Below are positions 1-40,003 of a stretch of 40,240 nt of DNA, in pieces; position 1 is the first letter of the stretch; every line of letters begins with the position of its first letter. A program made the position numbers and the translations under genes. The stretch spans positions 1 to 40,240 of the forward strand of contig JWZX01002699.1 in NCBI GenBank assembly GCA_001275005.1, given 5' to 3'. A model generated the notes under the pieces. The model saw only the letters and a program-made list of their open reading frames with translations, had not been told where the DNA came from and searched no databases. This DNA is from Chrysochromulina tobinii (Eukaryota).

Positions 1-3000
1 GGGAGCAGTCGGCCGCGGCGGCCGCCGCCGAAAAGGCGAGCGCGGTCCGCGGGGCCGAGGCGGAGATCGCGCGAGCTCTGGCAGCTCGCGATGCGGCGAG
101 CGCGCGCGCCGTGTCGGCGGAGGCGACGTCGGCGGCGGCCGCTGCTGAGAGGGAGGAGGCTGTGCGTGCGGCGGAGCGTAACGTGGCGTCCGCGCTGCAG
201 CTGCGCGACGCGGCCTCGGCACGGGCGACCGAGGCGGCGCAGGCTAGGGCACGCGCCGAGGCGGAGGCGAAGGCGGCGGAGGCCGCGGCCGAGTCGGCGA
301 TCCGCTCCGCCACGCTGGAGCACGAGGCGGCCAAGGCCCTGGCGCAGAGAGCCGAGGCCAGCGCCGAGGCCAAGGCGAGCAGCGCGACCGAGGCGGCGGA
401 GGCGGCGGTGAAGGAGGCGCACCTGCGCTCCCTCGATCTCGAGGCGCAGCTCGCGTCGAGCTCGCGCGAGCTCGCGCAGCTGCGCGACGAGCTCGCGCGG
501 GAGAGGAGCGCGAGCGCACGCCGGCTCGAGGCAGCCGAGGCGGCGGCGGCGCGGCTCGAGCGGAGCGAGCGGGAGCTGCTCGCGCGTGGGGAGGCGCTCG
601 AGGCGGCGCGTGCGAGGGAGGCGGCCCGCGAGGCGGCGAGAGAGGCGGCGGTGGAGGCGGCGCGCCAAGCGGACGCGCAGGCGGCGGCGGCGGCGGCGCA
701 GGCGGCGGTGGAGCAGGCGCGCGAAGCGGAGAGGAAGGCACGATCAGATGCGGAAGAGGCGCGGGCGCGCGCGAGGGCGGCTGTGGAGGAAGCCAAGGCA
801 CAGACCCAGACGGCCCACGACGACGCGCGCGTCGCCAAGGCGGAGGCTGCTTCGGCTCGTTCGGAGCTGCACCGCGCGCAAGAGGCGACCAAGACGGCGC
901 GTGCGGCGCAGGCAGAGGCCGAGATGGCGGCGGCAGCGGCGGCGGCGGCCGAGGCGAACGCCAAGGCGCGGGCCGGCCTCAAGGTCACCGAAGCCCACGG
1001 AGCGACCGAAGCCAAGCTCGTGGCCGAAGCCCGGGCCGCGGTGGCGGCCGAGGCCCAGGCGGCGGCCGAGGCGGCGGCGGCGGCCGCGAGCTTGGCGGAG
1101 AAGGGAGCTCGAGCGGAGCTGGACGCTACCGCCAAGGCCGCGGCGGTGGCGGTGGCGGCGGCGCAAGCGCGCGCGCACGAAGCCGAGTCCAAGGCACGCA
1201 GCTCCATCGAAGAAGTCAAGGCGCGCGCGAGGGCGGCTGTGGAGGAAGCCAAGGCACAGACCCAGACGGCCCACGACGACGCGCGCGCCGCCAAGGCGGA
1301 GGCGGCTTCGGCTCGTTCAGAGCTGCACCGCGCCCAAGAGGCGACCAAGACGGCGCGTGCGGCGCAGGCAGAGGCCGAGATGGCGGCGGCGTCGGCGGCG
1401 GCGGCCGAGGCGAACGCCAAAGCGCGAGCGGCGGCGAAGGCGGCGGAGGCGTTCGCGGCGATCGAGGCCAAGGGCGTGGCCGAAGCCAAAGTGGAGGCAG
1501 CGCGGGCGGAGGCCGACTTGGCGCGCGCGGAGGCGGCGCGGGCGGACAAGGGGCGTGCGGAGGCGCGAAACGACGCGTTGCAGGCCAAGGCGCGGTCCGA
1601 GGCGTCGCTCGATGTGAGTGTCGTTAATTGCCTCTTGATGGCCTCTTCTGATTGCCTCTGATTGCCTCTGATTGCACAGGTCCGAGGCGTCGCTTGATGT
1701 GAGAGCGCGCGTGCAGACGCCCTCCTTGGCTGATTGCTGCTGATGACCCTCTGACAGCCTCTGATTGCTTTCTTCATCAGGTGAGAGCGCGCGCGCAGAG
1801 GCCCTCCTTGGCTGATTGCTGCTGATGACCCTCTGACAGCCTCTGATTGCTTTCCTCATCAGGTGAGAGCGCGCGCAGAGGCCCCCCTTGGCTGATTGCT
1901 GCTGATGTCCCTCTGACAGCCTCTGATTGCTTTCCTCATCAGGTGAGAGCGCGCGCACAGGCCCCCCTTGGCTGATTGCTGCTGATGACCCTCTGACAGC
2001 CTCTGATTGCTTTCCTCATCAGGTGAGAGCGCGCGCAGAGGCCCAGGCACACGCAGCCAAGGCGGAGGCTGCGAGGGCTGAGGCGGCGAGGTCCGAGGCC
2101 GTTGAGGCCGCCAGGACGGCAGGGGCGCGAGCGGAGGCGGCAGAGGCGGCCAAGGCGGCCGCTGTTAAGGCCGAGGCCGCCGCGACGGCGCGGGAAGAGG
2201 CCGCAGAGGCGGCAAGGGCGACTGCAGAGGCGGCCAGGGCAAGTGCGGAAGCGGCGAGGGCGGAGGCTGTACTGGCCGAAGCGGCGGCGGTGGCGAGGGC
2301 GGAGGCCGCGGAGGCAGCCAAGGCGGACGCTGTGAGGGCTGAGGCGGCGGCCCTTGCCCGCGCCGAGGCGGCGGAGGCGGCGAGGGAGGCGGCGGAGGCG
2401 GCGAGGGCGGCGTCGGCGGAGGCGGCGAGGGCGCTCAGCACGGCGCGGTCCCAGCCGCCGGTGCAAGCACAGTCCTTACGGGCCGCCGAGCCCGAGACGC
2501 GCCGTGCTGAGCAGCTGGCCGAGCAGCTGGCCGCCGTGCAGACGGAGCTGGCGGAGGCGCGCGCGGCGCTCCTCGGGCAGCCGCTCCGAGCCGACCAGGC
2601 CGCCGCCGTCCAAGCCGCCGCCGCCGGCAGGGTGGACAGAGTGGACAGGGTGGACATTGTCCTGCCGAGTCCGGCCACGTCCCCAGCCGTTGAAGGTCAA
2701 GTCGCTCCATTGACGAACCAACCGTTGACGAACCAGCCGTTGACGAACCAGGGTCCCGTCGAGAAGGACGTGAGAGCGCTCGAGCGCCGTACTGAGCGCC
2801 AGTTGGAGCTCGAGCACTCGACGGCCGAGGCGCTGCGCGCGCAGCTCGCCGCCCAGGCCGAGCTGCACCTCGCGCAGCTCGCCGCCCAAGCCGAGGCTCA
2901 CCAAGCCCAGCAGAGGGAGATGGCGGAGCGTCATCGTGCAGCCCTCGCCGAGAAGCGCGAGGAGAAGAAGAGCCTCGCGAAACAGCTGGCCGACGTGAGC

Positions 3001-4885
3001 AAGGCGCAGCGGCGTGAAGAGAAGCGAGCGTCGGACAAGAGCGCCGAGTTGAGCGAGGACCTCGAGAAGCTGCGCGCCGAGCTGAGCACTGTGGAGGCCG
3101 AGCGGCGGGAGCTCGAGGAGGCGGCGAGATCGCGCCTCAAATCGCTCAAGGCGCTGCAGGAGGATGCGGCGAGGGCGATCAAGGCGCTCCATGCCGAGCG
3201 CGCCGAGAAGACGCAGCTCGAGAGCCGGCTGGCGCATTCGATCGCCGAGGTTGGCTCGCACAAGTCCGCCGTGTCGCGGCTGACGAAAGAGGTGGCCGCC
3301 AAGCACGCACCTGATTGCACCGGATTGCACCGGATGGCACCCGATGGCCTCACTCATCAGGTGGCCTAAGGACGCACCTGATTCAGGTGGCCTAAGGACG
3401 CACCTGATTGCACCTGATTGCACCTGATTGCACCGGATGGCCTCCCTCATCAGGTGGCCGCCAAGGACGCTCAGTTGCGCGAGGTGCGCGCGCGCCTCGA
3501 GGAGCGATCTGCCGCGAGCCTGGGCCACGAGGACGAGCGCAAGCGGCTCGAGGAGAAGCTCAAGGGGATGCAGGGCGAGCTCGCACGTCGAGATCGTCAA
3601 GCAAGCGATCTCAAAGCGAAGGTGGATCCCCTCGAAGGCTTGCACAAGTCCTCATTGCACCTGAGTGCCCCTGAGTGCACTTGAGTGCACCTGAGTGCAC
3701 CTGAGTGCACATGATTGCACCTGAGTGCACCTGATTGCTTTGGATGGCCTCCCTCATCAGGTGGATCAGCTCGAGGGCAGCCTGCTGAGTGAGAAGAGCG
3801 CCGTCGAGGAGCGCGCGGCGCAGTCCGCCGCCGAGCCCCTGAGGCGGGCCCTCGAGCGCAAGGAAACCGCGCTGCGCTCGATGAAGCTCAAGCTCGAGGT
3901 GGTTCAGGCGGAGCTGAGTGGCAGCCGGGCGGAGCTTGAAGGCGCCAAGGCGGAGGTGGCGAAGCGCGAGGCGAGGACGCGCAAGCAATCCGAGGCGGCG
4001 CACGCAGCGCTCGGTGTGCAGCTCGACAGGGCGCACGCCGACCGTGATGAGCTTCGGCTGCTCCTCCATCGGATCGCCCATGTCCTCGAGCAGACAAGGA
4101 CGAGTAGAGAAGCGACCGAGGCGGCCGGCCAGCGGCGCGCCGTCGCGGGCGGTACCACGGGTTCGTCAGCGCTACGCGAGCTCGGCGAGCTCGGCGGAGA
4201 TTTGGAGCTCGCTGCCAACGAGGACATGCAAGTGAGTGCGCTGGCCCACTCGCTGCTGCAGCTCTCTCCCGAGCAGCTCGGGCTGAGGCCGCGCACCGAG
4301 ATCGGGGGCGAGATGGTGAGCGGCCAGGGGGGCGCGAGCGAGAACGCGCCACCGCAGCTGCTGCTCACGTCCGCTGCCGATGTGGCAGCGGCCACGAGCA
4401 CCTCGCGGCATCAGAAGCAGCTCAGGACGGCGCTCTCGGAGCCGTTGGACGCGCAGGTGCGTTGATTGCCACTGATGATCTGCCTTGCATGCACGTGCTC
4501 ACCACGGCGCTCTCGGAGCCGTTGGACGCACAGGCCGCGTTCACCATCTTCTCGCGCCTCGTGCAGCAGCTGCCGCCATCCGGGGCGGCGCAGCAGCGCG
4601 GGACGGACGAGGCGGTGCAGCAGGCGCTCCATGAGTACGAGGCGATGCTCCGTCAGATCCGCTCGCAAGTCGTCACCGAGAAGGCGGACTACGAAGTCAA
4701 GCTCGCGCAGCGAGATCGCGTGATTGCGGGGCTGCGCGTCCGGCTGCAGGTGAGTGTCGTTAATTGCATCTTGATGGCCTCTTCTGATTGCCTCTGATTG
4801 CCGCTGATTGCGGCGGCTGCGCGTCCGACTGCAGGAGGCCGGGGTCGCGGGCACGTATGGGGTCGGCCACGTCACGTTTGAGTGA
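1..4885 (+). CDS. Large Ala/Glu/Arg-rich coiled-coil protein, 5'-truncated by the window. Inferred exons <1-1613, 2023-3291, 3454-3621, 3761-4456, 4534-4749, 4835-4885
   Basis: Frame 3 is open from the window start. ORFs 111-1661, 1927-3369, 3418-3684, 3725-4465 and 4462-4797 join in frame when five GT-AG phase-0 introns are removed (SLD|VRARAE, TKE|VAAKD, LKAK|VDQLE, LDAQ|AAFT, VRLQ|EAGV), ending at TGA 4883-4885. Confidence 0.8.
765..1420 (+). repeat. Internal coding duplication of about 200 nt (765-964 and 1221-1420)
   Basis: ARARAAVEEAKAQTQTAHDDARxAKAEAASARSELHRAQEATKTARAAQAEAEMAAA occurs twice, offset by 456 nt, with near-identical DNA. Confidence 0.9.
1614..2022 (+). other. Composite spliceosomal intron: an 85-nt cassette plus four tandem 80-82 nt units (alternatively two introns, 1595-1679 and 1699-2022)
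   Basis: GTGAGT donor at 1614 and CCTCATCAG acceptor at 2022. Units 1699-1780, 1781-1862, 1863-1942 and 1943-2022 each begin GTGAGAGCGCGC, as the next exon does, and end CATCAG. Confidence 0.85.
3292..3453 (+). other. Repeat-built intron (162 nt, phase 0)
   Basis: GAG|GT...CCTCATCAG|GT with CTGATTGCAC decamers. Its 5' end GTGGCCGCCAAGcACGC copies the downstream exon GTGGCCGCCAAGgACGC. Removal deletes in-frame stops. Confidence 0.85.
3622..3760 (+). other. Repeat-built intron (139 nt, phase 0)
   Basis: AAG|GT...CCTCATCAG|GT with CTGAGTGCAC decamers. Its 5' end GTGGATCccCTCGAaGGC copies the downstream exon GTGGATCagCTCGAgGGC. Removal restores the frame. Confidence 0.85.
4457..4533 (+). other. 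Intron (77 nt, phase 0) whose 3' end copies the upstream exon
   Basis: CAG|GTGCGT donor. The last 30 nt ACGGCGCTCTCGGAGCCGTTGGACGCaCAG match the exon end ACGGCGCTCTCGGAGCCGTTGGACGCgCAG. Removal restores the frame. Confidence 0.85.
4750..4834 (+). other. Intron (85 nt, phase 0), near-identical to the cassette at 1614
   Basis: CAG|GTGAGTGTCGTTAATTGC...CTGATTGCCT repeats. The 3' end GGCTGCGCGTCCGaCTGCAG copies the upstream exon end GGCTGCGCGTCCGgCTGCAG. Confidence 0.8.
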
Positions 4886-5261
4886 GAGGACGCGCGCCGC
4901 TACCGGTTCCTACTCGCCCAGGCCGTCTCAACCCAATCAAGTCAATTCAGGGCATTGCAGTCATGATTATGCTCAACATGCTCATGGCCATGGCCCATGC
5001 ATGGGGAGGTTTGAATCCCAAACCGAACTCGCGTGTGCTTTTGTGTCGAGTCGAGTGTCGTGTGCTGCGGCGTCACGCGGGGCCGTATCGCGTATAATGC
5101 CCCATCGTAACTACTATTCAACATTAAAATTTATAAAAAATTATATAGTTCGGTTATAGATAACTAGACACCGTCCCGGCCCCGGGCGGCCAAGCGCACG
5201 CTTCAAGTTACGAAATTAAGGCACAGCCGCAAGTACAGGAAGGACACGCCAATAAAAGTCG

Positions 5262-6200
5262 TCAGATCGCCGGCAGTTGGAAGGTCACTTTCCGCCGCAG
5301 AGGATGGGCCGACTCCGTCGATAAGCGCGCCGCCCGACGGGTCGAGCGTTTCATGGACTCGTCCACCATCCGACTGATTCGGTTGGAGTTGACCACCATC
5401 CCAAAAGGGAAGCGATCCGGATCTGTCAGGGCCGAGAACGGCTCGCATGGAGGCGCGCTGCTCTTGACGCTGCTCGGCGCGACGCACTCGTGCATCCGCT
5501 CCCGCTTGCGCGCGGCGGCGTTTGCGTTCAGAATGAGCGCGCAGAACTTGTCGAGGTCCAGCTCGTCGTCGATGGTGCAGTGCACGGCCGCTATGGCTTC
5601 GCGAGTATCCGTGATGCCAATGGACTGAAGAGGCTCTTTGAGCTCCTGAAGGGAGAGAGAGCCGTTTCCGTTGGTATCGAGGGCATGGAACGCTCGTTGC
5701 AGCGCGTCGCGCGTGCTCTCCGGGATGATCGTGCGCCGCGGCGACATACGAGAGTGACCCGCGCACCACTCGGTTTGCTCCTTTTCGAGCAGCAGCAGTT
5801 GGTGCTCGCTCAGTCCACGGGGGGATAGCCAGTCTTGCTTCCGAGGGGATGCGAGCAGCGACGGCAGCGACGGCAGCGGCGGCGGCGGCGGAGGCGGGCG
5901 CGGCAACTCGGCTGAGTTCCTTGGCGAGCGGGACATGCCCTTGAAGCCCGTACCGCTGCTCGACGACGGCACAGACTCGAGCCCCTCGGCCGCCGCGGCC
6001 GTTCTGGCGTTGTCAGTGGTCATGGTTGATGACGGCGGAGCAGGTGCATTGGATGGCCGGGCTTGCGAGGGCGGAGGAAAGAAGTGGGGAGGTAATTGCC
6101 CAGGTGCGACACGGGTTCGGGAGGTGCTCGCAACGTGCTGAGCGGCCATGCTGTCCAGCTCACGTGCCACCAGGTTGAGCGGCCGTACGCGGACGGGCAT
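5262..6200 (-). CDS. EF-hand calcium-binding protein with a Pro/Ser-rich N-terminus
   Basis: 312-aa ATG ORF with a canonical EF loop AFHALDTNGNGSLSLQEL and a degenerate second loop (IDDELDLDKF). Confidence 0.75.
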   Translation of the reverse strand: MPVRVRPLNLVARELDSMAAQHVASTSRTRVAPGQLPPHFFPPPSQARPSNAPAPPSSTMTTDNARTAAAAEGLESVPSSSSGTGFKGMSRSPRNSAELPRPPPPPPPLPSLPSLLASPRKQDWLSPRGLSEHQLLLLEKEQTEWCAGHSRMSPRRTIIPESTRDALQRAFHALDTNGNGSLSLQELKEPLQSIGITDTREAIAAVHCTIDDELDLDKFCALILNANAAARKRERMHECVAPSSVKSSAPPCEPFSALTDPDRFPFGMVVNSNRISRMVDESMKRSTRRAARLSTESAHPLRRKVTFQLPAI

Positions 6201-6529
6201 TTTGTGGGGCAGTCTGTTTCGTTTCCAATGGCAGTTTCGTTTCCACGTTCTTGAGATTACATAAAGGCAACGATTGCATGCTGATGGCAGTCAGTCAGGC
6301 TCGAGAGACGCGTGCGGACGTCACGTTTGGTCGCCATTCCACGACACCTGTTTGGGAAACTGAATGGTTTAGCGTAGACTTTGAAAGGGGAGTGGTCTCT
6401 TCGTATTTTTCATTCATGTACTCCGAAAGTTACATACCTCAAGGCAAGATGACGAGTAGATGGCGTTCATGATAGCTTTCCTTCGCCTGGTACCTTCAGT
6501 TAATGACAGCCCCCACGAGCGCAGAGTGA

Positions 6530-7456
6530 CTAATAACAATCACCAATCTTTGCAAGGCGCGAGTGCCGGCGGCGGACATCCCGTGCATGGCATTCCTCGG
6601 CCCTCGCACAATTGCGGACCGAGGTACGAGCCGCGCAACTGCGGCTTGTGCGGCTGCGCGGCTTGAGCTCATTGCCGCGCCGCGCAGCCGCACGAGCCCT
6701 CCTCCGGCTCTCACGGACGCGCCCCCGAGCCACGGCCGCCCTCTCCCCCCTCCCCCGTCGTCTCATATTAGGGTATTCCCAAGCATCTGCCCAATTCTCT
6801 GCCCAAGCATCTGCCTCTGCCTCTGCCCAAGCCTCCGCCCGAGCCGCCTTCGCCTTCCTCCGAGCCCTCGCCCAAGCCTCTGCCTTCTTCACAGCAGCTA
6901 CCACCGCCGCCTTCGAAGCAGCAACCGCCGCCGCCTTCGCAGCGACAAGTGCCACCGCCCTCTCAAACGCCTTCTCAGCGGCAACCGCCGCCGTCTTTTC
7001 TGCTGTCTTCTCGTCATAGTGGACGTTCGCGAGCTTAAGAGCGGCGTAGCATGCATCCGTGAGCGTCGGATCAAGGGCCTTTGCCTTGTTGTTAATCGAT
7101 GCGTCCACGATGGGCGCGGCGCTTGCAATCATTGCGAGCGGCGTCTTGCACTTCATCATCTCATGTTTGTTCGTCGCAAGCCACGTGCGGCAGCGGGAAA
7201 TGACGCCGCTGTCGATTGGCATATCGGTGGTGGTCAACTCGGCGACGTACTTGACAAGGCTTGCGGGCATGCCATCCGAGGAGGATGCAAGGGAGGCGAG
7301 AGCGCCGGCAGCCGTCTTCATTGCAGACGCACGGCGGCAAGCGGCCTGCACGGCGTCCCACTCGCTCATGCGGCGTGAGGTGAGCAGACGCTTCATCTCA
7401 GCGACAGCCCACCCCGCCGCGTCGGAGGGCAATGGAATGGTTTGGTTGGAGGGCAT
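6530..7456 (-). CDS. Hypothetical Ala-rich protein (3' end uncertain)
   Basis: Open frame from ATG 7456 (MPSNQTIPLPSDAAGWAVAEMKRLL...) with protein-like composition and WAEA/WAD repeats. No recognisable domain; the C-terminal part looks off-frame. Confidence 0.4.
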   Translation of the reverse strand: MPSNQTIPLPSDAAGWAVAEMKRLLTSRRMSEWDAVQAACRRASAMKTAAGALASLASSSDGMPASLVKYVAELTTTDMPIDSGVISRCRTWLATNKHEMMKCKTPLAMIASAAPIVDASINNKAKALDPTLTDACYAALKLANVHYDEKTAEKTAAVAAEKAFERAVALVAAKAAAVAASKAAVVAAVKKAEAWARARRKAKAARAEAWAEAEADAWAENWADAWEYPNMRRRGRGERAAVARGRVRESRRRARAAARRGNELKPRSRTSRSCAARTSVRNCARAEECHARDVRRRHSRLAKIGDCY

Positions 7457-7889
7457 TGGAAAGGAGCCTGTGTGCTCGGGTTTTGAGAAGAGTGTGCTTG
7501 CCTTGGCATTTCCGCGAACGCGCTTGTCTTTCGCTCGACTTTTGCATAATCCTCTTGCCAGTCTGGCCCTTCTCTTCTGGGAAGGCCTGAGACCTGCGTT
7601 TGGGAACACACGAGACTGGATGCGCTGCCGCGGACGCGGTGGCCGCCGGCGCCGCCGTGACGCACAGCAGCCTCTTTGGCTGTGATGGGGGCCGGCACTT
7701 GCCTGTTCGCGGTTGCGCCCCCGAAATGCGAAAACAACGGCACACAAAGACAGACCGAAGCTCTATACTCTGAAACTCTCGGTCAAGTCTCGAAAGACGG
7801 CCTGGTGTGAAGCGAAATATGCAGGACAGTAATTTTCTTTGTCGGTCTCCTACATCCGCTCCGGGTCCGATATGCGCGGGTGAATGCGA

Positions 7890-8405
7890 GGGTCTGTCAC
7901 TGTTGCGGTTTTCAAGCAGATCGGCTGTTTGGCACGCGTTCTGAGTGCTTTCGCCCAAGCTGTCATGTTCGGCTCATTCCCCCAGCCATCAATTGGATCG
8001 GATGGCGCTCAACCCGTACGTGCCGGCGGCTCTCGCGTCGTGCTGCACGTTAGTGTCGAACGTAGTGCGGCTCACTTAGCGCCTCGCTGAGCGGCCACCT
8101 CTGTGGAAGCCTCTGTGAAGGGCTCGCTGAGCGCCTCCGCTGAGCGGCTTGTCTGCCGCCATGCAGTCGCACGCGTTGCCGAACCACGACGTCGTCGCAC
8201 CGGCGCTCTTGGCGTAGTCGTTGAGGCTTCTCAGGCCCAGGACGCGATGAATGGCTCTCCGCTTGCGTCGTGGTATGAGCCGTTGACGCCGGGGCCGAAT
8301 ACGCCTCCCAGGCTGTCGTCTTCCGACGACTGTGTGGCCGGCACAGGAGAGGGCAGGGCGGACGCCGTCTGAGCAAAGGGACCGTGGATCAACAGCAACG
8401 TCTGG
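7890..8405 (-). pseudogene. Decayed alpha-galactosidase (GH27)-like pseudogene fragment
   Basis: Collinear peptides across shifting frames: VG/DDS/WEAY/GPGVNGSYHDASGEPFI/GLRSLNDYAKSAGATTSWFGNACDC/EPHY/DARAAGTYGLSAI/EPNMTAWAKAL..QPICL/EN. These resemble the GH27 DDxW, 'ADYxH-G' and downstream segments. Multiple frameshifts and stops. Confidence 0.5.
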
Positions 8406-9310
8406 TCGGTGAAGGAGCGGCGGAGTTCCGAGCGCGCACGCCTCGGTGAGGAGTCCTGCCGAAACTATTTGGGAAGCTGTTGTTCGCCGCAACGGCAGGC
8501 AGAGGAAGTGGCAGGAGGCGAACCGCTGAAATTCGGAATATCGAATGGTATCGAATCTTGTGAGCTATATGCCTAAGTGTAGAAGCGGCATCTCTGCCGA
8601 AGGCATGCGCGCTGGTGTCACGGCATACCAAGAAAGTAAACCATCCCTGTGGTAAGTAATGCCACGATGACAAGGAAGAACCATAGCTCCCGGTGACTTT
8701 GCTCCTCCTCAAGCATTTGCTTGGAAGATACTAGGGACCGAACGTATTCTGGGAGTTCGAGACAAAAGGGCCAGAAGACCCACGCGGCGCCTTGCGTCAC
8801 GATATGAAGGTCCATTGGACCTACAACAGGGTTTTTGTCGGCCGACGAGGTGCAGATTCTGTGTCGCCCCCGACTTTTCGTTTTCGAAACTTGGACAAAC
8901 TTGTTTGACCTTCATGCGAAAAGGTCACCTAGGAATGACTCACGTAATTACAAGGAGTTTTGGAACCCCTCATCCCCAACCCACCGACGCTAAATCGAAG
9001 CGGAGCACCACGCCACCCCTGCCGACTTCGTTTGCCTAGTCAGTCAGTCACATGCCCTACATTTCGCCTCACGCCATTGCTTCGTATACCTCTGTCATCG
9101 CATAGTCATCGCATGACCTATCTCCTCCACGCTCTGCTTACACTTCGCCCATCTCTCTGACTCTCTCTCTCAAGATCCCGTCTCTATAGCCAACCATCAC
9201 CACAGCGAGTACTCCAGCTCTCGGCACAGCTCCTCGCGCCCGCCATGGCGCCCGTGCAGCTTTGGCCATAGTTCGCCCACATCAGCGCTCAGACGACACA
9301 CCAGACCAGC

Positions 9311-9492
9311 CACCTCGGCGCTCGGGGCTATGTGCATATGCCATATGCCCACCTCGGCGCTCGGGGTTATGCTCGTATGCCATGTGCCCACCAACTCGTC
9401 CCCGAACTCACCCTCGATGCGGAGCGACGAAATACGGTTTCGTCATCGTGTGCCATTCGAAACATGGCTTCTTCATCGTGTGCCATTCGAAA
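9311..9492. repeat. Two short tandem duplications downstream of the CBS stop (39-nt x2 and 30-nt x2)
   Basis: CACCTCGGCGCTCGGGGYTATG...ATGCCATRTGCC at 9311 and 9350. TCATCGTGTGCCATTCGAAAC occurs twice at about 9443 and 9473. Confidence 0.75.
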
Positions 9493-9520
9493 CGACGTGC
9501 ACAGCAAGAATGCGACTCTC

Positions 9521-20626: not shown

Positions 20627-20670
<44 letters not shown>

Positions 20671-24629: not shown

Positions 24630-24679
<50 letters not shown>

Positions 24680-27502: not shown

Positions 27503-27533
<31 letters not shown>

Positions 27534-28877: not shown

Positions 28878-31186
28878 ATGCAGGTATTCGTCGACGACGC
28901 AGCAGCGCCACCTCGCACACATGCATCGAGCTCTCGCAAAGTTCTCAAAACGCTCGCACCCAACGTGCAAGGGCAACAACAAGCTGCCTCCAAGGCCTCT
29001 CCCGCGGAGTCGGCGACGGCAGCGGCTGTGAGCGACGAGCTCTTCGAGAACCGCGCGTTGCTTCATCGCGTGCTGCGGGAAAAGCAGCAGCTGCTCGCGC
29101 GCTGCACGCAGCAGGAGGTCGCTCTGCGCGCCGCAGCTGCCCGCGAGAGTGCGCTCACGGCAGAGCTGGCCGAAATGGAGAGCACCATTGCTGGCCTCGC
29201 GGCGGCGAATGCGGCTAACACGCGGCGGCCCGTCAATCATCTTGCCATGGCAGCGGCTCCCACCAAGCAGGACGAGGCTCCGGCGCCGGCTGCCCTTCAC
29301 CCTCCATCGCCACTGCCGGTGGAGACGCTCGCCGCTGCTGCCCACGCTGCGGCTGCCCACGCCGTGGCCGCACGTGAGGCACAGGCACAGGAGGCGATCG
29401 AGCGCCAGGCACGGGAGGCGGTCGAGCGCGCTCTGCTCGCCCGAAGCCGCGAGTGTGAGGAGCTTGAGCTGCGCGCGCGCTTCAAGGAGGCACAGTTAGA
29501 GCACCAGCTCTCCCAAGTCGCCAGGCGCGAGAAGGAGCTCTCCTCGTACTGTCGGCAAGCGGCTCAGCAGCCGCAGCATCCGCCGCTGATGCTGTCGCCC
29601 GCCGCGATGTCGCCTAGCCTTTCGGAGCCAGTCGATATGATTGCCGCAGCGATCGCCACCGCAGCTGCGGCCTTTCTCAGCGCAGCTCCGCCGCCACCGT
29701 CAGACGCGATGCCAGAAGCGGCGGCCGCGCCAGCGCCGCTACCGCTACCGCCGCCGCCGCCGCCGCCGCCACATGCGAGCAGCCTTGCCGTGCACCGACC
29801 AGGCGCCGTGCCGAGCATCCCCGCGTGGCGGCAGGGGCAGCGGAGGGCGAGCGCGCCTGCCGCGATGAGCTCGGGCTCATCTGGCACGCGCGCCCTCGCG
29901 AGCCCGAACCGTCAAGCCTCGATCTCGGCGATGAGCTCGGGCTCATCTGGTCGCATGCCTCCCTCGGGCTCATGCTGGTCGCATGCTTCATCCATCGACT
30001 CGCTACCGCCCTCCCTCTCCGCGGGTTCGCATCCCTCTTCGCGCCCATCCTCGCACCCCTCCTCAAGGACCACTTCGCCCTCGCGCCCAGCCACCACACG
30101 CCCAGGCTCTCTCCCGTGCTCGCGCGCGCCGTCGCCCGGCGCCTCGCGCCTACCGTCGCCCATGCACTCGGCGCGCCTGCCCTCGCCTGCCCGCCCGGCC
30201 TCGCCCGCAGGCACGGGCCTGAGCATGGGCCTGTGCAGCGCCGTCGTGGGCCCCACCACCTCCGCCTCGTCGCTCCGATCGGACTTGCGCCGACTGCAGC
30301 TGCTCGAGCGCGAAGCAGCCAGGCAGCAGTGGCTGCCGCCGCCGCGGCGCGAAGGCCGTGCGTGTGTGTCGACTACCGCGAGCACCGCCGTACCGAGCGC
30401 CGTACCGAGCGCCGTACCGAGCGCCGTACCGAGCGCCCCGCTGCTCGCTCACCCGCACGCGCGCCGCGGTCTGAACGCCAGCCTCCACGCTTCCTCCCAG
30501 AGCGCCGGCCCGAGCCGCCGGCCCGAGCGCCGGCCCGAGCGCCGGCCCGAGCGCCGGCCCGAGCGCCGGCCCGAGCGTCGTCCATGTTCCCAACAGCCGC
30601 AGCCCGTCGGTCGAGTCCGAGTCCCCGCGCCCGCCCACTCACCTCTCGTGAGCTTCAAGTCCCCGCGCCTTTCGACCTTCATGCGGAGGCGCGCCATCCC
30701 GAGCGCGTCGTCCCGAGCGACCACGTACCACCACGACCGGCGGCGACAGCGTCGGCGGCGGAGGAGGCGGGGATTCTGGACACGCCAAGCTCGGCAGCGG
30801 CCCTCGCCAAGATCCCGAGTGACGTGCTGGCGATGGTGGCTCGTGCCGTGGGCCACCAACTCGAAAAGGAGGAGGCCGATGTGTTGGCGATCGTGGCACG
30901 GGTGGTGGGTCAACAGATTGGCGTCGAGAAGCACGCTGGCCATCAGATGGACCTCGAGAAGCACGCTGGCCATCTCGAACGAGAGGCCGAAGCAGAGGCC
31001 ATGGCAGCGGCCGACGTGGCGGCGGAAGAGGCGGCGGACGCGGCGGCGGCGGCGGTGGCCGGCGAGCGGGCGGTGGCGCCGGCTGCTCCAGACAAGATGA
31101 AACCACCACCACCACCCGTCGCCCTCGACTACGCGCGTGCTCAGCCCGTGCCTCCCGCCTGGCGGAGCTCAAGGCAAGCACGCTGA
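28878..31186 (+). CDS. Hypothetical coiled-coil plus Pro/Ser-rich protein; apparent frameshifts near 30516 and about 30630; 3' end uncertain
   Basis: Coiled-coil N-terminus from ATG 28878. Coding-like composition moves to the frame of ORF 29825-31186 after the 12-nt repeat block. Confidence 0.6.
30381..30577 (+). repeat. 12-nt coding minisatellites (CCGAGCGCCGTA)n and (CCGAGCGCCGGC)n encoding PSAV/PSAG
   Basis: Tandem dodecamers at about 30385-30437 and 30500-30577. Confidence 0.85.
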
Positions 31187-32292
31187 CGTTGCGGCTGGAG
31201 ATCTCTCGAGCGTGAGCCAAAGAAGCCCCTGATGAGGGAGGCAATCAAGGATGCTGAAGTCGCGGCTATGATCTCTCGAGCGTAAGACCACGCGCCGGTG
31301 GGGGAGGGGATTTTGAGATTGGGGGGGAGGCAATTCAGAGATGGCGGCGCGAGGGGCTCCATGGGACCGTGCACATGAGCATGCGTGTGGCGTGAGCGTT
31401 GCATGGACCCGAAACCGATCACCGACAAAAGTGCTCGGCGGCCGGGTTTCGGTTTGCCCGTGATCCGACCAAGAAGCAAGATTGGAGTCGTGAAGGCTCG
31501 GTGGTGTGATCACATGATCTTCTTACCTGGTATCGTCAGCCGGTCAGCGCAAGTGATAGCCGGGCTCTTAGTCTTTTTGTGGAGGGTTGACTCGGTCGGA
31601 CGCGATCGCGACCCTTGCTAGGATCGCGACCATTTCGCGACCATCCGATCCGAATTGGAAATCGTCTAATATATTACTTATTAGTCATCACCCGCGCTGA
31701 CGCCCGGCGCGGTCGCTCGCTCGGCTCGCGGACGATCAACGATGCGGCTGATATGCTCTCAAGGGCTGAACGGAATGATTGTTCTAACAGTTCATTCCAG
31801 GAATGCTGCAGCGCACGATACCGCAGCGCGCAAACATGATCATGGTTCATCGAACGAGGTGAGGACGAGCGTGAGAAACTGAGATCCGGCCGCGGGGCCG
31901 CCGCGTCCACAGGGCCTGTGCCCTGTGCCAGCATATTGACCCTAGGCGACCGGACCCGACCCCCCGAGCCGAAGATTGAGAGTCGAAGGGTCACACTGGA
32001 GTGTCAGACACTAAACATGCGGGAAAAGGTTCGTCGAAGTTTCATCACTGACCTCGCAGGGTTTCGTCATCTCTTTATTAGGCAACCAGTGGGTTTCGTC
32101 ACTAGGGCTACCGGCAGTAAATCTCCGTACTATATAGCGCCGGTTACGATAACGAACGAAACCATAAACACATACGACCCAGTAGACTACGTAAAATAAT
32201 CAACGAATGCCACTTGTGCGCATGACCTATGAGCATGTCCATGCGGCCTCTCGGGTGTGTGTAACCGCGACACGTATGCAGGCTAAGTATGC

Positions 32293-32590: not shown

Positions 32591-32720
32591 CTCACAGCCA
32601 GCCCGCGTCTCACGCCTGGCATCTCAGAGCTCCCACTCTCCAAAGCAGGTTGGCGGTTTAGTGGCGGCTGGCCACGTAATGCCATCCAGCCCTGGGGCTA
32701 TTTCAAGGCATATCTCGGGG

Positions 32721-34457
32721 CTATTTCTCCTTCAGAGAGGCCACGTCTGACGACGAGGGCGTCACGGGAATGATCGGGGGATCGTCCAGGGGAAGACCAT
32801 ACGAGGCCATCCACGGGTGCTGCAGCGCCTCCGCCGCAGTCGGGCGCACGTTGGGGTCGAGGGTCAGAAGCGTCTCGGCGAAGAGACTGAAGGACAGCAC
32901 GTCGCCGAATATGGAGGGATCGAGATGTTGGGCGAGTAGCTCGGGCAGCGTCATGTTGGGCTCGCTGCGCAGCAGATAGGTGCCCGGGGCGGTGGCAGGA
33001 GGGTCGACCTCGTACACGTAGCCCGAGCCGGAGAAGTAGATGGATCCGAGTGGCCCTTCCATCATCCATGGTGGGAAGGGCCCGCGGGTAGCCTTGTGGG
33101 CCGCGAGGACGAGCTCCGTCGACGCGAACTGGAAGGGCACGAAGCCGAGCGCGACTTCGATGGCCACGCAGCCGAGAGACCACACGTCGATCTTGGGCGT
33201 CCAGCTGAGGCCGAGGATCACCTCGGGCGCGCGGTACCAGCGGCTCTGCAGGGTAGGGGGCGGGGGGCGCCATGGTGGGTGTCGAACACGTGAGGACCAC
33301 CGAGCCGAGGCGATCGGGAGGCACTTGGGAGGTGATCGGGCGGGTGGACACTTGCGGGGCACTCAGTGGCACTCACCTGCAGGTAGGACATGTGGGCGTC
33401 GTGCGTGAGGACGACCGAGCCGAAGTCGATGAGCTTGAAGATGCGACGCTCCGCGTTGACGATGCAGATGTTGGCCGTCTTGACGTCGCAATGCGTGATG
33501 CCGAGGTAGGTGAGGAAGGCGAGCGCGTCGAGCATCTGGATGGAGAGGGCCCCGATCGAGCCTGCGTGCCAGTACTCAGCGCGCGCGCGCGGGCCAAGTG
33601 TCTCGAGGTGCGTGCAGTGCGCCAAGACGGACGCGTTGAGGCGCTCGTACACAAGAAAGAGGTGCTCGCGGTAGTAGAAGCAGTCGAGCAGCCGCACAAT
33701 GTGCCGGCGGCCGAGTGGGTCATGTAGGCGGATCAGAGATTGAACCCGGGCCTCGCCCAGCCCGGCATCCACCGTCTCCTTTGCGTTCTTTAGGCACTTG
33801 AGTGCCACGGGCCGGTTCTGGGCGCCTTCGTGCACGGCGCGGAAGACGGTGGCAAAGGAGCCCGAGCCGAGGATCCCGTCGATCTTGTAGCTGCGAGTTC
33901 ATAAGGGTGGCGGCAAGCAGATGAGACAAAACCATGCGGTGGCGTAGAGACGTGGCGTGGGGAGAGGGAGCGCGCGCCTCGCGGGGATCGTTGCGAGATG
34001 GGCACGCGCGGTGCATCGGGCAATCAGAGCAAGGCAGGCGAGGGGCGCACTTGAAGCCGACCGTCTCGTTCGGGCTGGGAAGGAAGTCGGATATGGGCTC
34101 CATGCCGTTCAAGTTCGGATTGAAGATGGTCGGGATCGACATCATCACGCGGAGCTCCGGCGGAGCCGAGGGCACGTGCGTCACTACACGATGAGCCGCA
34201 TCATGCGTACCTCGGCGTTCTCGCAACGCCGCCTTTGCCGCGTGGTTGCTAACGATGACGCGACTGCACGCACACACATCCAGACCGCGCGTGTCAGGGG
34301 CTGCTGATGGATGATTGCGAGGCGCGTGCAGGGGGGTCTGTACGCACTTGAGGATCGGAATGGGTTGGGGAGGTGCCCTTGTTGGCTGCGGCAGCTGCTC
34401 CTCGAGAGGAGTGACGGCCACCGTCCAGATGAGGTCTGCGGGCAGCGTGAGGTTCAT
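32721..34457 (-). CDS. DYRK-family (DYRKP-like) protein kinase. Inferred exons 34457-34051, 33890-33377, 33245-32721 (start uncertain)
   Basis: The spliced product gives FNYKIDGILGSGSFATV, VALKCLKN, LLDCFYYREHLFLVYERL, HCDVKTANI, KLIDFGS and SYLQ|SRWYRAPEVILGLSWTPKIDVWSLGC. The pre-kinase NGMEPISDF segment resembles that of DYRKP. Confidence 0.88.
33246..33376 (-). other. Intron (131 nt, phase 0) with a degenerate copy of the last ~50 nt of the upstream exon
   Basis: CAG|GTGAGT...CTGCAG|AGC splits YLQ|SRWYRAPE. The intron contains TCGGCTCGGTgGTCCTCACG...CTACCCTGCAG, against exon TCGGCTCGGTcGTCCTCACG...CTACCTGCAG. Confidence 0.9.
33891..34050 (-). other. Conventional intron (160 nt, phase 2)
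   Basis: AA|GTGCGC...CTCGCAG|C joins TVGF-N-YKIDG. No cassette repeats or exon copy seen. Confidence 0.8.
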
Positions 34458-35375
34458 GTGGGCGTCGATGTTGCGCGTCGCTTGCGGACGCGCCTTTCTT
34501 TTCTTGGCACGACACGATGCGTCTGGAGAAGAGAATCTTTCAGAGAGTGTCGAATGAATATTCCCCGAAGTTGCGGAACATTCCAACTTTAGAAATCGCA
34601 AGCTATAGAGTCGCACGAGTGAAAGAAGACGGGCCTTGTCGTCGGACGACGGCGCTTGAATGCGCTCGTGACGTCGAACGCAGAGCTGGCCTTTAATTGC
34701 AGCCAAATCACTTGTACCATTAACCGACTAAAGTACATCGTACATACACGAAGTCGGATGTAGTCGGAGGTAGTATGCAAATATGAGAGTCTGTTTATTA
34801 AGTACCAATCACGCTATCCACTTAGCACTTTGCAGATACAATGTTATTTCAAGTTCTCGTCTTCCGCCCTGCATTCCGCCCCCGCCCTCGTGCCTCGATG
34901 CTCGAACGCCTAAGCCACTCAACGGGCAACGGGTATCGCTATCGGGTTTACGGGTAGTCATTTACACGCCCGGTCGGGTAAGCCAACGATTAATCTCCGA
35001 CTATCTCCGGATCTCCTGTGTGATGCACAATCAGGAGTAATCAGGAGACTTGAGTTCGTGATCGCACATTCGACATTCATTGTCGACATTGGTATAGATC
35101 TAGAGATGGAGGTTCGCATATCGTATGCCATATCGCAACTTTGCAACATTGCAAGTTTTCATTGCTGATTCGCGGCCCGACGAGTTACGGCGGAATCAGT
35201 ACGGCAACAAAGTACGGCTAAGCGCGGTTAGTACAGTTTACATACAGACCACAGTACTTTACAGACCAGCACCAGGGCGCAGGGGCCGCGGCCGGGCTCA
35301 CTTCTAGAGCTAGAGCTGTCGAGATGCACCGCTGCGACGCTCCGAGGCAGCGCCCGCCAGGGGGGCCTCACGGCC

Positions 35376-38300
35376 TCAGGACGCGGCCGAGAGCACCTTC
35401 TTCGCCATCTCGAGCTCCGACATCGCCGCGAGGAACACGGCTCCTTGCGACTCCTCCTGCTGTGCCTTGGACAGAGAGCCATCTGGAGGCCCGATCTCCA
35501 TGAGAGATTGGCGGTTGGCCTTCAGCTTGCCCATGAGCCTCTCGGTCGCCTTGTCGGGCTTGGTGATCGTGCCGCCAACTCCGACATGTCCTTGATTCAT
35601 CGCGACTTGTCCAGCGGCGCGCGCGCCCCCAGCCGCATGATCGGCTTGCGGCTTGAGCGCCGCGTCGCCCGCCAGGCCCATCTTAAGCGCGACCCGATGC
35701 ACCTCCATGCCGTTGAGCATGATCTTGCGCGACTGCTCAGCGATACCCTTGCGCTCCCGCGCCGGAACGCGCTGCACTCCGTCAAAGCCCACCGGCACGG
35801 CGTGCTCGTGGACGGGCGGCGGCGGCTTGGGCGTCCACCTTTCGAGATGAGGTCGGCGTCGCGACCTGGCAAAGTCGAGCGCCTCTTGCAACTCGGGTGG
35901 CCTGCCGCTCATCGCCTCCTCCTGGTGTTTCGCCCTCGCCTGCTGCAGCGCGATGTCGTGCATGGACTGGTGCAGCAGTCGATGGCGTCTTTGGTGCACG
36001 AGCTCTGCAAATTCAGGAAGGGCGCGCGCAAAGCCCTCGGCGTCCTCCCGAGCGAGGCACAGCACACACGTGTGGTCCGCCGCGCGCACCGCCACCGCAC
36101 TGATCGGCTCTTGCGCGCCACCCTTGCCCACCCCGCCGCCGCTAGTCTTGAGGGCAGTGGCAGCAGGCTGGGCGCCGAGAACCACCCCGTACACGTCGTC
36201 GAGAACGCTCTCGCCCACAAAAGGTGTGTGCGTCTCGTGCGTGAGTGTCGCCACGATCTTCTCGGTTTGCATGCGTCCCGCCCTTTGGAAGAGCCGCAGC
36301 TTGCCCCATCCGGTCCGCTGTGAGAAGACGAGCTTGCCGCTCACGACCACATGGAATGTCTCAATTGGCCTCCCCTCCTCCGCGAGCTTGTCCCCCGGCG
36401 CGTACGCGCGCATTCGAAACGTCTGAGCGAGCGGTACGAGCCGTCGAGGTGCAATCTCCGAGAAGACGGGCGCACGCACGAGCGCTTGCTGGCACAGCAT
36501 GATCTCCGCACGGCGCGCCGTCTGAAACTGGATCAGCTGCTCGTAGATGCGACGTGACTGCGCCAGGAGCGCTTCGGGCAGCACCAGCAGCACGGCCGCC
36601 TCTATGCTCGTCGCCGTGTGCGCGCGCAACATGCCGCCCGCGCCGCCGGCCGTGCTGCCGGGGGAGCCGGAGGAGGCGGAGGAGGCAGGGGTGGCAGGGG
36701 TGGCAGGGGTGGCTGAGGCGGGCTTTCCTTGATCGCCTCCCTCCGTCGACACATTCGTGATGAGGGCGAGGGTCTCGATGCCGAAGACGCTCCCCGGCCC
36801 GAGCGTCGAGTCCTCGTAGATGCCCACGTCGAGCCCCAGAACCTTACCCGTCTGCACGTCGGTGAGCACACGAGGGAAGATTGACATCTTATGCCCAGAG
36901 GCCGCGGCGCCCGAGACGGCGGCGGCCGCGGCCGAGGGTGCGCCGTCTGCGGATGTTTTCGCTCCCCACTCGTTCACCGTCAGGTGAATGGCGCCCGAGA
37001 GCACAATGTAGAATGCGTTGCACGGCTGCCCCTTGCGATAGAGAAGTTCGTACCTGAGGAGGAACGCGATCCTCAGAGGCAATCCAGTGCAATCAGAGGC
37101 CATCAGGATGGTCATTCGAAGCACTCAGAGGCCTCTCAGAGGCAATCCAGTGCAATCAGAGGCCATCAGGATGGTCATTCGAAGCACTCAGAGGCCTCTC
37201 AGAGGCAATCCAGTGCAATCAGAGGTCATCAGGATGGTCATTCGAAGCACTCAGTGGCCTCTCGCACCGGCGCAGCTCGCGCTGCTTGAGCTTGTTGATG
37301 ACGAGATCCTGCAGGTAGTGGTGCGGCCAGCTGCTGAAGAGTGCCGTCGCCTTGAGCATCTTGATGGTCTCGTTGGCAGTGGGCAGTGGCGGTGGCCCCC
37401 TCGCCGGCGCTGTCGCCGCCTTTGACGGCGCCGTCACGGGCGGTGGCGGAGAAGCTCCTTCGTGCAAGATCTCAAAGCCAGGGGGCGCCGTCTCGGGCAG
37501 CACGGTCGGCGCGCCGTCTCGGGCAGCCGGTGGCTCTTCGGCGGGTGGGTTGCCCTTGGCCGGCGCAGACGACGGGCGGCCGCCCGCCTGCGCCTGCGCT
37601 GCAGCATACTCCCTCTCCTCTGCCGTCTCTTCAAATCCCGGCGGCATGAGGTACATTGCAGCAGCTGATTGCGGGCGTGCGGGCGGTGGTGGCTTGCGCG
37701 GCAACGTCGGTGCCAAGGGCTTCTCAGGGCTTCTCTTCTCCGCCTGCGCCGGCGGGCGAGGGCCCGCGGAGTCTCTGTGAACGTGGACGAAGCCACCATC
37801 GGTAACGGTCGCGCTGCGACGGTTACCGAGGTCTGGTGTGGAGGCACTATGGCGAAGGTGGAAGCGGCTTGCGTGCGATGACGAGGTGGGCCGACTCGAC
37901 AAGACTGGCGAGGGAGACTGCGGCCGTCGCAGCATTGAGGCGGCGGCTGAGGCAGGGCGTGCACCTTGCTGCTGTGGCTGCTGCTGCTGCGGCTGTGTCT
38001 GCGTCTGCGTCTGCGTCGGCAACATATCGTCCAACGAGGGATGCGACAGCAGTGGTGTCCGCACGAGAACGGGGTAAGCGTGCATCAAAGGTGCGCGAGG
38101 TAAGCCTCGCGTATCGAGCAGGAAGGCATCAGACCGCACCGGGAAGGCACGGGGCTCCAGCTCCAGGACCACGTCGTCTGCCATGTAGTCCACATCAATC
38201 GCATCGGCCGCCACCGAAGTGACCTTGCCGATCACGATCTTGAGCTGTGTCGCGACGGCCGCAGGAGCGGAGCTTGGCACGGACGAGCTGCTGCGTTTTG

Positions 38301-38466
38301 CCACAGCTTCCTCCGCAATACGTTGGGGTTGCCACGCCAACACGCTCTTGGCCGCCATATACGAGGAGGACCGCTCGAGCTCGTTGAAGCGACGAGCGGC
38401 GAGAGCCGCCTCAATGTGCACCACCTGCGGGGGCAGCCGGCGCTTGTTGGGCGGCACGAGGACCAT
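35376..38466 (-). CDS. Protein with two cyclic-nucleotide-binding domains and a long disordered N-terminus. Exons 38466-37268 and 37053-35376
   Basis: Domain 1: LKATALFSSW...RR|YELLYRKGQPCNAFYIVLSG...LGPGSVFGIE...RAHTATS. Domain 2: LVRAPVFSEI...YAPGDKLAEEGRPIETFHVVVSGKL...FVGE...AVRAADHTCVLCL. Confidence 0.85.
37054..37267 (-). other. Repeat-built intron (214 nt, phase 2) made of three 63-nt tandem units
   Basis: CG|GTGCGA...TTCCTCCTCAG|GTACGA. The unit GAGAGGCCTCTGAGTGCTTCGAATGACCATCCTGATGGCCTCTGATTGCACTGGATTGCCTCT occurs three times. The intron splits the first cNMP domain. Confidence 0.9.
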
Positions 38467-38602
38467 CACGTCCCCCTCTGCCGAGCGCCCGAAGGACAAT
38501 CGAACCGCTTGGCCGCTCAAATTCCGCAACAAATGCCTCGACTCTGGAGCGGCCAACGCCCGCGCAGGGCCTGGTTCTTGTTTCAACGGTGCATTTGTGA
38601 GC

Positions 38603-40003
38603 ATGAACCACGATGATCTCCGCACCTTAATCATTGCAGTGGCGTCCTGGTTCTCCCTGCTGCTGGTCGGCCTCCTTTTCCATTTTCTCTGGTCGCGACG
38701 GCAGCAGCACCAGGTCGCTCCGGAAGAGCGGAAGGTGGCTCCGGCGCCCATGTACCCACGCGAGAGCCACACGGTGTACCACGACCCCATCGGTTCAGTC
38801 GTTCTTGTCGCGGGCATGGAATCGCGAGCGCTCTTCGCACCGCAAAATCGGACTCCATATCCAAGAGAGCGCTTGCAGCTCGCCTCCATGGGGCGTCCAC
38901 GATTGCAACCCGGTGTCGCGGAGCTCCACGCCGCCGCCAAACCCGTCGCCACACCTACCGCCACAGACGGCGACAGACGCCCTTTGCCTACCGCCGCCAC
39001 CCCTGCCGTCGCCCCTGCCGTCGCCCCTGCCGTCGCATATTTTGGTGATACGTCCGTCATTCTAGACGCCGCACATCCCGCTGCTGCACCTGGCGCCGCA
39101 CCAACCACCGCCACTGAAGGGGAAGCAAGGAAAGAGATTGAGGAGTTGGCGCTGCGCAAAGATGCGCTACGGCGACGACGAAGGCTGCCATTCAAGCTCT
39201 CGTTGTTCCGATCGCGTCCACCGCCTCCACTGGCACCCGGCTCTGGCACGGCTGAGCAGCTACCGAAACTGGCCGCGCCAGCTACCGCAACGGCAACCAC
39301 GCCTGCAATGACACCTGCGGACGCACCTGCGCACGCTCTAGCCGCCTCTGCTGCCCTCGGGCAGCCACCAGCTGGAGACCTGGAACCAGAACCAGCACCA
39401 GCACCAGCGCCAGCGCCAGCTCCAGCGCCAGCTCCAGCACCAACAGAGCAGCAGCGGCCTGGAAGGAGCGGCAGCAGCAGCACTCCCTCCGACGAGCCGC
39501 CGCCGCACGCAGAGACGCCGGCTGTCGAGCGCCGTCTCGAGCCCTCCCGCGAGGACTCCCGCTTGGACGTGGCCGAGGCCCTCCCCACAGGTGCGCTAGG
39601 CTGCATGCAAGTGCTCACCACGACGCCCCCCCGCTTGGACGTGGCCGAGGCCCGCGCGCTCAATGCGAGGCTTACACGATCCCTCGAATTTGCCGAGGCA
39701 GCTACTACTGCATCGCCGGCTGAAGGTGACCAGCAGCGATGTGCACCTGCGAGGGGCTTCGATGCGCTGGCGGCTGCCGGGGGCTACGTTGCAAAGAAGA
39801 GGCCGCCGCCGCCAAAGGGCACCGGGAACGTCGTCGCCGCCAACGCCAACGCCAACGTCACTTCCAGTACATGTAGTAGTACTACTGCTGTCGTCGGTGG
39901 TAGCAGGAAGCGAATTGAGGCCCCGGACGAGGATGTGGGGGCCGGCGTTGGACTACCGGCTGCGTCGCGGGCAAAGGCCCCATTGCCCAGCCAGCAGCAA
40001 TAG
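38603..40003 (+). CDS. Hypothetical single-pass membrane protein with a Pro/Ala-rich tail
   Basis: ATG 38603, hydrophobic LIIAVASWFSLLLVGLLFHFLW followed by SRR, then an open frame to TAG 40003. Confidence 0.65.
   Translation: MNHDDLRTLIIAVASWFSLLLVGLLFHFLWSRRQQHQVAPEERKVAPAPMYPRESHTVYHDPIGSVVLVAGMESRALFAPQNRTPYPRERLQLASMGRPRLQPGVAELHAAAKPVATPTATDGDRRPLPTAATPAVAPAVAPAVAYFGDTSVILDAAHPAAAPGAAPTTATEGEARKEIEELALRKDALRRRRRLPFKLSLFRSRPPPPLAPGSGTAEQLPKLAAPATATATTPAMTPADAPAHALAASAALGQPPAGDLEPEPAPAPAPAPAPAPAPAPTEQQRPGRSGSSSTPSDEPPPHAETPAVERRLEPSREDSRLDVAEALPTGALGCMQVLTTTPPRLDVAEARALNARLTRSLEFAEAATTASPAEGDQQRCAPARGFDALAAAGGYVAKKRPPPPKGTGNVVAANANANVTSSTCSSTTAVVGGSRKRIEAPDEDVGAGVGLPAASRAKAPLPSQQQ
39578..39649 (+). 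other. 72-nt cassette insertion, possible GC-AG phase-0 intron
   Basis: Flanked by a duplicated CCCGCTTGGACGTGGCCGAGGCCC. Contains TGCATGCAAGTGCTCACCACG, shared with intron 4457-4533. In frame with no stop. Confidence 0.55.

Follow-up and report, generated by a model that had tools for sequence, protein, structure and literature searches.

Introns flanked by exon copies in Chrysochromulina tobinii: a candidate case of intron gain by break repair templated on other introns

Introduction

The source of new introns is a long-standing question, and mass intron gains have so far been credited to transposons. Here we report on a set of introns in the haptophyte Chrysochromulina tobinii in which a repeat cassette lies between two copies of a segment of the neighboring exon, and in which the cassette is itself a piece of other introns. 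Our starting point was a stretch of 40,240 nucleotides (nt) of contig JWZX01002699.1, hereafter the window, for which an earlier reading of the sequence (the original prediction) had proposed that shared cassettes and long exon copies generate introns; we then compared it with related loci. The pattern is real, active, and widespread in the genome. Its best explanation, to which we give a probability of roughly 0.55, is the repair of staggered DNA breaks with template switching onto an existing intron, followed by selection for splicing.

Results

Exon copies flank cassettes across related loci

A single scan for the acceptor motif yielded 103 loci, of which 95 were kept (27 groups, about 0.40 Mb of unique sequence, including near-identical assemblies and 97-99% identical alleles), while L028, L041, L087, L092, L093, L096, L098, and L100 were dropped as chance matches without decamer context; since all groups were picked by cassette presence, densities are biased upward. 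A direct repeat of exon sequence (score at least 12) flanks 72 of the 169 cassette clusters, against 5 of 168 for the next flank out, 16 of 1676 shuffled pairs, and 52 of 845 random places, so that the duplications are borne out well outside the window. Eight of the 72 repeat-flanked clusters were removed by eye, their repeat being cassette-like or spurious, which left 64 inserts for analysis. The exon copy is 12-39 nt long, with a continuous spread and a median of 25.5 nt (the search floor was 12, and shorter copies are uncounted), and is perfect in 24 of the 64; insert plus copy measures 67-292 nt (median 87). Copies never exceed 39 nt, even though longer ones were detectable, and a link with nucleosome linker length is a speculative idea. 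The clusters are clumped (variance 1.26 versus a mean of 0.56 in 136 bins), and among the 87 of 169 that were callable for orientation 81 are sense, four antisense, and two tied, the other 82 being uncallable.

The original prediction distinguished two polarities, type A, in which the exon copy supplies the GT donor and the cassette the acceptor, and type B, in which the cassette supplies the donor and the copy the AG. These splice-site sources hold, and their logic had already been described for Introners with short duplications, but both polarities belong to one geometry (exon copy-insert-exon copy), which also comprises a type I, where the duplicated exon copy holds both splice sites, and a class that is not seamless. 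The 64 inserts divide into 25 of type A, 11 of type B, 12 of type I, and 16 that are not seamless. In types A and B an exon copy particular to the locus forms one end of the intron, and in type I such copies form both ends; the cassette spacer is present in every case, in a set that was selected by cassette. Removal of the insert plus one copy as a GT-AG intron is possible in 39 of 64 cases, and on the opposite strand in 8. The seamless splicing that the original prediction proposed is possible for most inserts but not for 16 of 64, and seamlessness is best read as the work of selection, aided by AG|GT microhomology. Phase 0, noted for all eight introns with a copy in the original prediction, is only the commonest state: phases 0, 1, and 2 number 18, 7, and 7 among 32 callable cases, and of the AG|GT sites that coding sequence contains, 26 of 34 are in phase 0.

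Empty alleles and allele differences

Among 23 allele pairs we found three empty sites with a single exon copy, the intron-less state that the original prediction had said should be sought. One concerns the window intron 4457-4533, which is lacking, exactly and with the exon segment single, from allele L018; this allele has the window's other introns and matches it at 98.4% identity. L068 carries a mid-exon insert of 92 nt, its 32-nt copy perfect, that is missing from L053. Because the filled allele carries the duplication, the single copy can be argued to be the earlier state. That the process is active is supported. Existing junctions change as well: four differ between alleles by one whole unit (61, 68, 74, and 97 nt), alleles L018 and L086 have an extra 74-nt unit at the 3' end of 3622-3760, and several arrays vary in decamer number. 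Cassette-free inserts flanked by copies also segregate (66 nt in L035, 86 nt in L025); a donor was looked for in the case of L035 and not found. In L018, the stretch corresponding to window positions 4842-4900 carries a 55-nt plain tandem duplication, free of cassette, around the stop codon and 3' end.

That repeats produced false duplications during assembly is hardly credible, since several assemblies show the same structures, as do alleles 97-99% identical to one another, mismatches within copies are common to several records, and frames are open only once the segments are removed; it is nonetheless true that these are short-read assemblies, that run contigs break at cassettes, and that some differences in unit number may be assembly noise. 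A more substantial objection is that the intron positions are old, their interiors having been remodeled by border duplications and decamer slippage, and that the empty alleles are precise losses, which the direct repeats would permit. Modules do accumulate at existing junctions (window 1614-2022; L051), and one kinase intron site is common to related genes with different interiors. We nevertheless consider this improbable, because simple inserts with perfect copies lie mid-exon opposite an empty allele (L068 with its 32-nt copy; L018 at window position 4013) and because P0187, a 79% identical sequence on a 13-kb contig, is continuous at three of the L051 junction positions, breaking off elsewhere. 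P0199 is likewise continuous at three L051 positions and breaks off near the fourth, a break that suits old positions. The L051 gene moreover has at least nine introns, against an average of about one per gene in the C. tobin genome (PMC4580454).

Inserts are pieces of other introns

Rather than a single element with fixed ends, the cassette is a piece of other introns, sometimes with bases of the donor exon. Two cassette families occur, intermixed. One consists of decamer arrays with CCTCATCAG at their end; the other has a 24-nt core with a branch-point-like CTCAC, after which comes a pyrimidine tract. Of 64 inserts, 21 have a counterpart elsewhere (identity of 90% or more across at least 85% of the insert), eight of them within the same record. 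Both ends vary, same-strand inserts being cut at either or both; type B inserts hold the part upstream through the core, and type A inserts the core plus what follows, as if they had been cut from one whole intron. The clearest donor is that of the 64-nt insert in L008, which equals the L035 locus at 100%, including nine bases of downstream exon beyond the acceptor, and 9 of the 16 non-seamless inserts carry 1-15 bases past the acceptor. Since inserts run beyond the acceptor into the donor exon, the template must have been DNA or unspliced RNA rather than an excised intron. An excised lariat was rejected as template on this ground, and intron transposition by reverse splicing is contradicted by the donor exon bases carried along and by the long duplications. 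In L036 and L006, the likely splicing would add 4 or 8 codons (+12, +24) derived from the duplicated exon, by which peptide duplications could arise.

The junctions show microhomology, which averages 1.69 nt versus 0.55 expected on the left (n = 16, p = 0.0002) and 1.75 versus 0.51 on the right (n = 8, p = 0.0016). There is also a local bias, the sharing of 12-mers falling with distance from 0.089 (<1 kb) through 0.058 and 0.055 to 0.028 (>10 kb), with 0.039 between loci (p = 0.0015). Among distinct sequences following the acceptor motif, which is itself free of GT, 32 of 50 start with GT, the dropped loci contributing 6 of the 50.

These features leave very little room for a classic Introner, a fixed-end, non-autonomous DNA transposon whose target duplication provides one splice site. 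The splice-site logic is that of Fig. 2B and 2C of PMC9860276, a paper that also reports, for Chrysochromulina sp., a family lacking inverted repeats and having 4-bp duplications, and cassette ends do recur across our loci. However, terminal inverted repeats are absent from the 64 inserts (4.6 matches of 12 versus 4.3 in shuffled sequence), as the original prediction had observed by eye, the duplications are variable and 12-39 nt long as opposed to the published 3-9 bp, a difference it had likewise pointed out, the ends are not fixed, and donor exon bases travel along. On these points the Introner reading is already largely refuted.

Window introns

The window holds 11 cassette clusters, compared with a mean of 0.18 in shuffled windows, and every segment named in the original prediction is in its place (Table 1). 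Each of nine window exon copies outscored 1000 random exon pieces (all p<=0.001), so the long copies are upheld. The pairing of cassette and copy within introns stands with three reservations, concerning 37054-37267, which has no exon copy at either side (p = 0.15 and 0.99 against 1000 random exon pieces), 1614-1698, and 39578-39649. The segment 1614-1698, whose copy is identical at 19 of 20 positions (p<=0.001), ends in GAT and is ruled out as a separate intron: either a compound intron 1614-2022 begins with it, or a shift to the left turns it into a GT-AG intron at 1595-1679, with a 19-nt exon after it. Together with 1699-2022 (copy 21/22, p<=0.001) it probably forms one intron, 1614-2022, predicted from a frame that is open after its removal. 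Taking out 1614-2022, 3292-3453, 3622-3760, 4457-4533, and 4750-4834 gives a 1336-codon frame with zero internal stops, and the cassettes at 1614 and 4750 are 96.8% identical over 62 nt. The segment 39578-39649 (copy 20/20, p<=0.001) is a doubtful intron: it is 72 nt long, in frame, and stop-free, its donor would have to be a weak GC, and it is possibly an unspliced in-frame insertion. Two long overlapping open reading frames (ORFs) of opposite direction, 37219-39783 (-) and 38189-40003 (+), surround this site, and the coding strand is ambiguous.

Table 1. Cassette-bearing features of the window and its empty site.
Position	Strand	Feature	Detail
1594-1698	+	Copy 1594-1613, donor-bearing decamer cassette 1614-1679, copy 1679-1698	First module of compound junction
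1699-2022	+	Four tandem units, each downstream exon copy plus acceptor cassette	Tandem repeat, period 80, 4.3 copies
3292-3453	+	Type A intron; GT from exon copy, acceptor from cassette, internal re-duplications	Copy 16/17
3622-3760	+	Type A intron	Copy 15/18
4013-4027	+	Empty site in the window; in L018 segment duplicated around cassette, 77-nt GT-AG insert	Alignments
4457-4533	+	Type B intron; absent from allele L018	Copy 34/37
4750-4834	+	Type B intron; common to L018 (gapless match)	Copy 28/29
21198-21293	-	Type B intron, CASP/CUX1-like gene	Copy 19/20; frame test; flanked by Pfam CUX1_N and CASP_C
31182-31283	-	Copy-cassette-copy insertion, new to this analysis	No seamless splice sites; 15 extra bases past acceptor
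33246-33376	-	Older type B intron, protein kinase gene	Copy 25/29
37054-37267	-	Cassette intron, 63-nt unit x3, phase 2, cNMP-binding domain gene	Splicing predicted from frame
39557-39652	+	24-nt perfect copy around 48-nt cassette piece	Piece begins in acceptor tail and crosses AG|GT

Evidence on splicing

Related proteins are continuous across five window junctions (3292-3453, 3622-3760, 4457-4533, 4750-4834, and 33246-33376) and could come from transcripts or from intron-less genes. The distant homologues P0210, P0211, and P0213 (46-49% identical) run through 3292-3453 and 3622-3760, and in P0202 (89% identical) the exons are joined exactly at 4457-4533 and 4750-4834. Across 33246-33376 the exons are joined at a kinase motif in P0001, in five members of its cluster, and in C. 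tobinii P0157; a kinase 88-94% identical to the window exons belongs to the same 90% cluster as C. tobinii KOO53550.1. At the L051 locus, P0180, a protein from a 1.8-kb run contig and 93-100% identical to the exons, fits GT-AG splicing at 9 of 9 junctions with 0-2 mismatches, and we infer from this fit, and from a tail that we take to resemble adapter read-through, that it is of RNA origin. Reading frames called separately on each side agree in 40 of 47 seamless cases, by a method that was correct for 159 of 172 training pieces. The L051 introns have phases 0, 1, 2, 2, 1, 0, 0, 0, and 1. The gene (L051 1785-6080) encodes a 2,4-dienoyl-CoA reductase; many of its compound cassette introns, at least nine in number, have unlike exon copies at their two ends, and one intron holds an antisense decamer block.

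Other features of the window

The window is GC-rich. In the CASP/CUX1-like gene, RNA and DNA runs have one base fewer at each of positions 20895 and 20903, and because the frame is open to its end only without these bases, the window probably contains two small errors or a broken allele. The insertion 31182-31283 is antisense to a plus-strand ORF, at the 3' end of that ORF. The kinase gene (32698-34500, -) is a member of a multi-copy family with differing interiors at one shared intron position. The stretch 6450-7400 is multi-copy, lacks a Pfam match, varies at many sites in DNA and RNA runs, and may be a repeat family; at 26265-26430 there are two AT-rich intergenic 84-nt copies, 98% alike; and a single ORF at 26764-28538 (-) fuses an asparaginase-2 domain with a glutathione S-transferase N-terminal domain. 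Prymnesium and Diacronema are among the named NudC relatives. An Rfam search of the window and a triple-decamer scan of viral contigs each gave 0 matches.

Discussion

A proposed model of intron gain by templated break repair

The mechanism that we favor is built on observations, namely the copy-insert-copy geometry, the empty alleles, the identity of donors, the read-through into donor exons, the junction microhomology, and the local bias. A staggered DNA break would occur in an exon, and repair synthesis would switch, at short microhomologies, onto another cassette-bearing intron, copy roughly 40-65 nt of it, and return to the target, leaving a 12-39 nt target duplication on either side of the copied piece. 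Since many donors have GT following their acceptor, synthesis that came back at AG|GT would give a copy beginning with GT. Selection would then sort the outcomes. A copy starting with GT would let an acceptor-bearing insert persist (type A), a copy ending in AG would do so for a donor-bearing insert (type B), and a copy containing AG|GT for decamers alone (type I), while the remaining outcomes in exons would mostly be purged or add whole codons. Every surviving intron would become a new donor, making the pool self-feeding, and shared cassette ends would draw further events toward existing junctions. Later, recombination between copies would multiply a unit (as in 1699-2022) or could delete it, and slippage would alter decamer number. 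Of the two routes mentioned in the original prediction, staggered-break repair with templated synthesis is thus the better fit, and reiterative synthesis is unneeded, since decamer counts differ between alleles and slippage suffices.

The principal rival, which we regard as unlikely but worth serious attention, is that a reverse transcriptase of the LINE or Penelope type, priming at a nick, copies part of the unspliced pre-mRNA of a cassette-bearing gene, a second-strand nick 12-39 nt away giving the duplication. Target-primed reverse transcription typically leaves target duplications of variable length and no inverted repeats, and this is what we observe. A pre-mRNA template would equally account for the read-through into donor exons and, if nascent, for the local bias, and the fairly fixed edge of the recurring core also suits it. 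What tells against this rival is the form of the inserts, both of whose ends vary (type A keeps the 3' part of the intron, type B the 5' part, and type I the middle only), with no poly(A) and no single fixed 3' end accompanied by truncation at the 5' end only. Furthermore, no reverse transcriptase and no transposase was detected by Pfam among the 22 ORFs of the window, a small sample.

Several points weigh against templated break repair itself. The 24-nt core, which is not a decamer, recurs 29 times with a left edge rather fixed at a GCATGC palindrome, which is element-like. A flanking copy is not detectable for 97 of the 169 clusters. The local bias is modest, and pairs less than 1 kb apart may include parts of a single compound intron; the microhomology figures come from 24 junctions whose register was set from periodicity. 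The empty alleles could be reversions, and the intron position at 33246-33376 is common to related kinase genes, with variant interiors. Finally, no RNA joint appears at any window intron among 15 of the 162 joints listed for 2050-21400, a table made from contigs of three RNA runs and one DNA run in which nearly all listed joints are repeat-driven DNA joints; the gene is thinly covered, which makes this result neutral.

A wider version of templated break repair is possible, if somewhat doubtful. It would make of these introns a transposon-free, self-propagating factory in which the cell's break repair uses introns as patch templates, AG|GT microhomology steers the return, the duplicated exon supplies the missing splice site, and the products become donors; thousands of haptophyte introns, and their decamer repeats, would have been made in this way, invisible to Introner screens. 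The gains segregate in natural populations, and each keeps its target copy, its donor, and a record of its junctions. Because donors can be traced, the birth rate, the template, and the mechanism are open to direct tests in an alga that can be cultured and whose genomes are public. If the model is true, break repair, exon duplication, and intron copying merge into one process that published screens miss by design, and that process may explain the decamer-rich introns of haptophytes.

Comparison with known systems

A literature search found no account of these introns; in its available text, PMC11282704 covers no haptophyte, and C. tobinii, although screened (Table 1 of PMC9860276), is in none of the Introner rows found there. 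Introner screens demand similarity at both intron ends and discard low-complexity families (PMC9860276, PMC12130899). Our introns resemble Introners (PMC9860276; PMC12130899; 10.1101/2020.10.14.339549) in that exons gain introns from a multi-copy sequence, the target duplication provides one splice site or both, and some insertions add codons. In the broad sense of the term they are found at new exon positions (three empty alleles) and draw a splice site from the duplication (25 type A, 11 type B, and 12 type I of 64). Introner members, however, match at both ends and have duplications of 3-9 bp fixed per family (PMC9860276), whereas here neither this, nor terminal inverted repeats, nor similarity of members at both ends is seen: the ends vary, one is a locus-specific exon copy, and donor exon is carried. 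Introner families are also reported in Chrysochromulina sp. and Emiliania huxleyi (PMC9860276). As for SINE-like non-LTR retroposition, the variable-length duplication is present and a fixed 3' end with 5'-only truncation is not seen.

The polymerase theta pathway is associated with templated insertions at staggered breaks, and target direct repeats around filler, junction microhomology, and templated filler are all present here (small sample). Small tandem duplications arise at staggered breaks in animal cells, and those described in PMC8355091 are similarly shorter than 100 bp, with microhomology and added sequence, but they are presented as mutations of animal and plant cells and are not linked to the origin of spliced introns. 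Break-repair intron gain in Daphnia, described together with AGGT duplication in PMC3443670, shares with our case direct repeats flanking new introns, a staggered break with filler, and presence/absence within a species. Its repeats are short and its filler is mostly untraced, whereas here the repeats account for between a quarter and a third of intron length and the filler can be followed back to other introns, which makes the process self-feeding. Type I (12 of 64) is akin to the Rogers model of tandem duplication of an AGGT exon segment (PMC3443670), both splice sites coming from a duplicated AG|GT; in that model the intron is wholly duplicated exon, while our copies are separated by a foreign spacer that contains branch-point-like motifs and lengthens the intron to at least 67 nt.

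Within haptophytes there is a possible further parallel: Read et al. are said to have noted in 2013 that E. huxleyi introns are enriched in 10-11 bp tandem repeats, of decamer length as here, whose role was not explained. On sequence grounds, the introns described here behave like Introners at their splice sites and like break repair at their junctions, and they fail as members of the transposon-type Introners. They would appear to be a previously undescribed variant of the known routes of intron gain.

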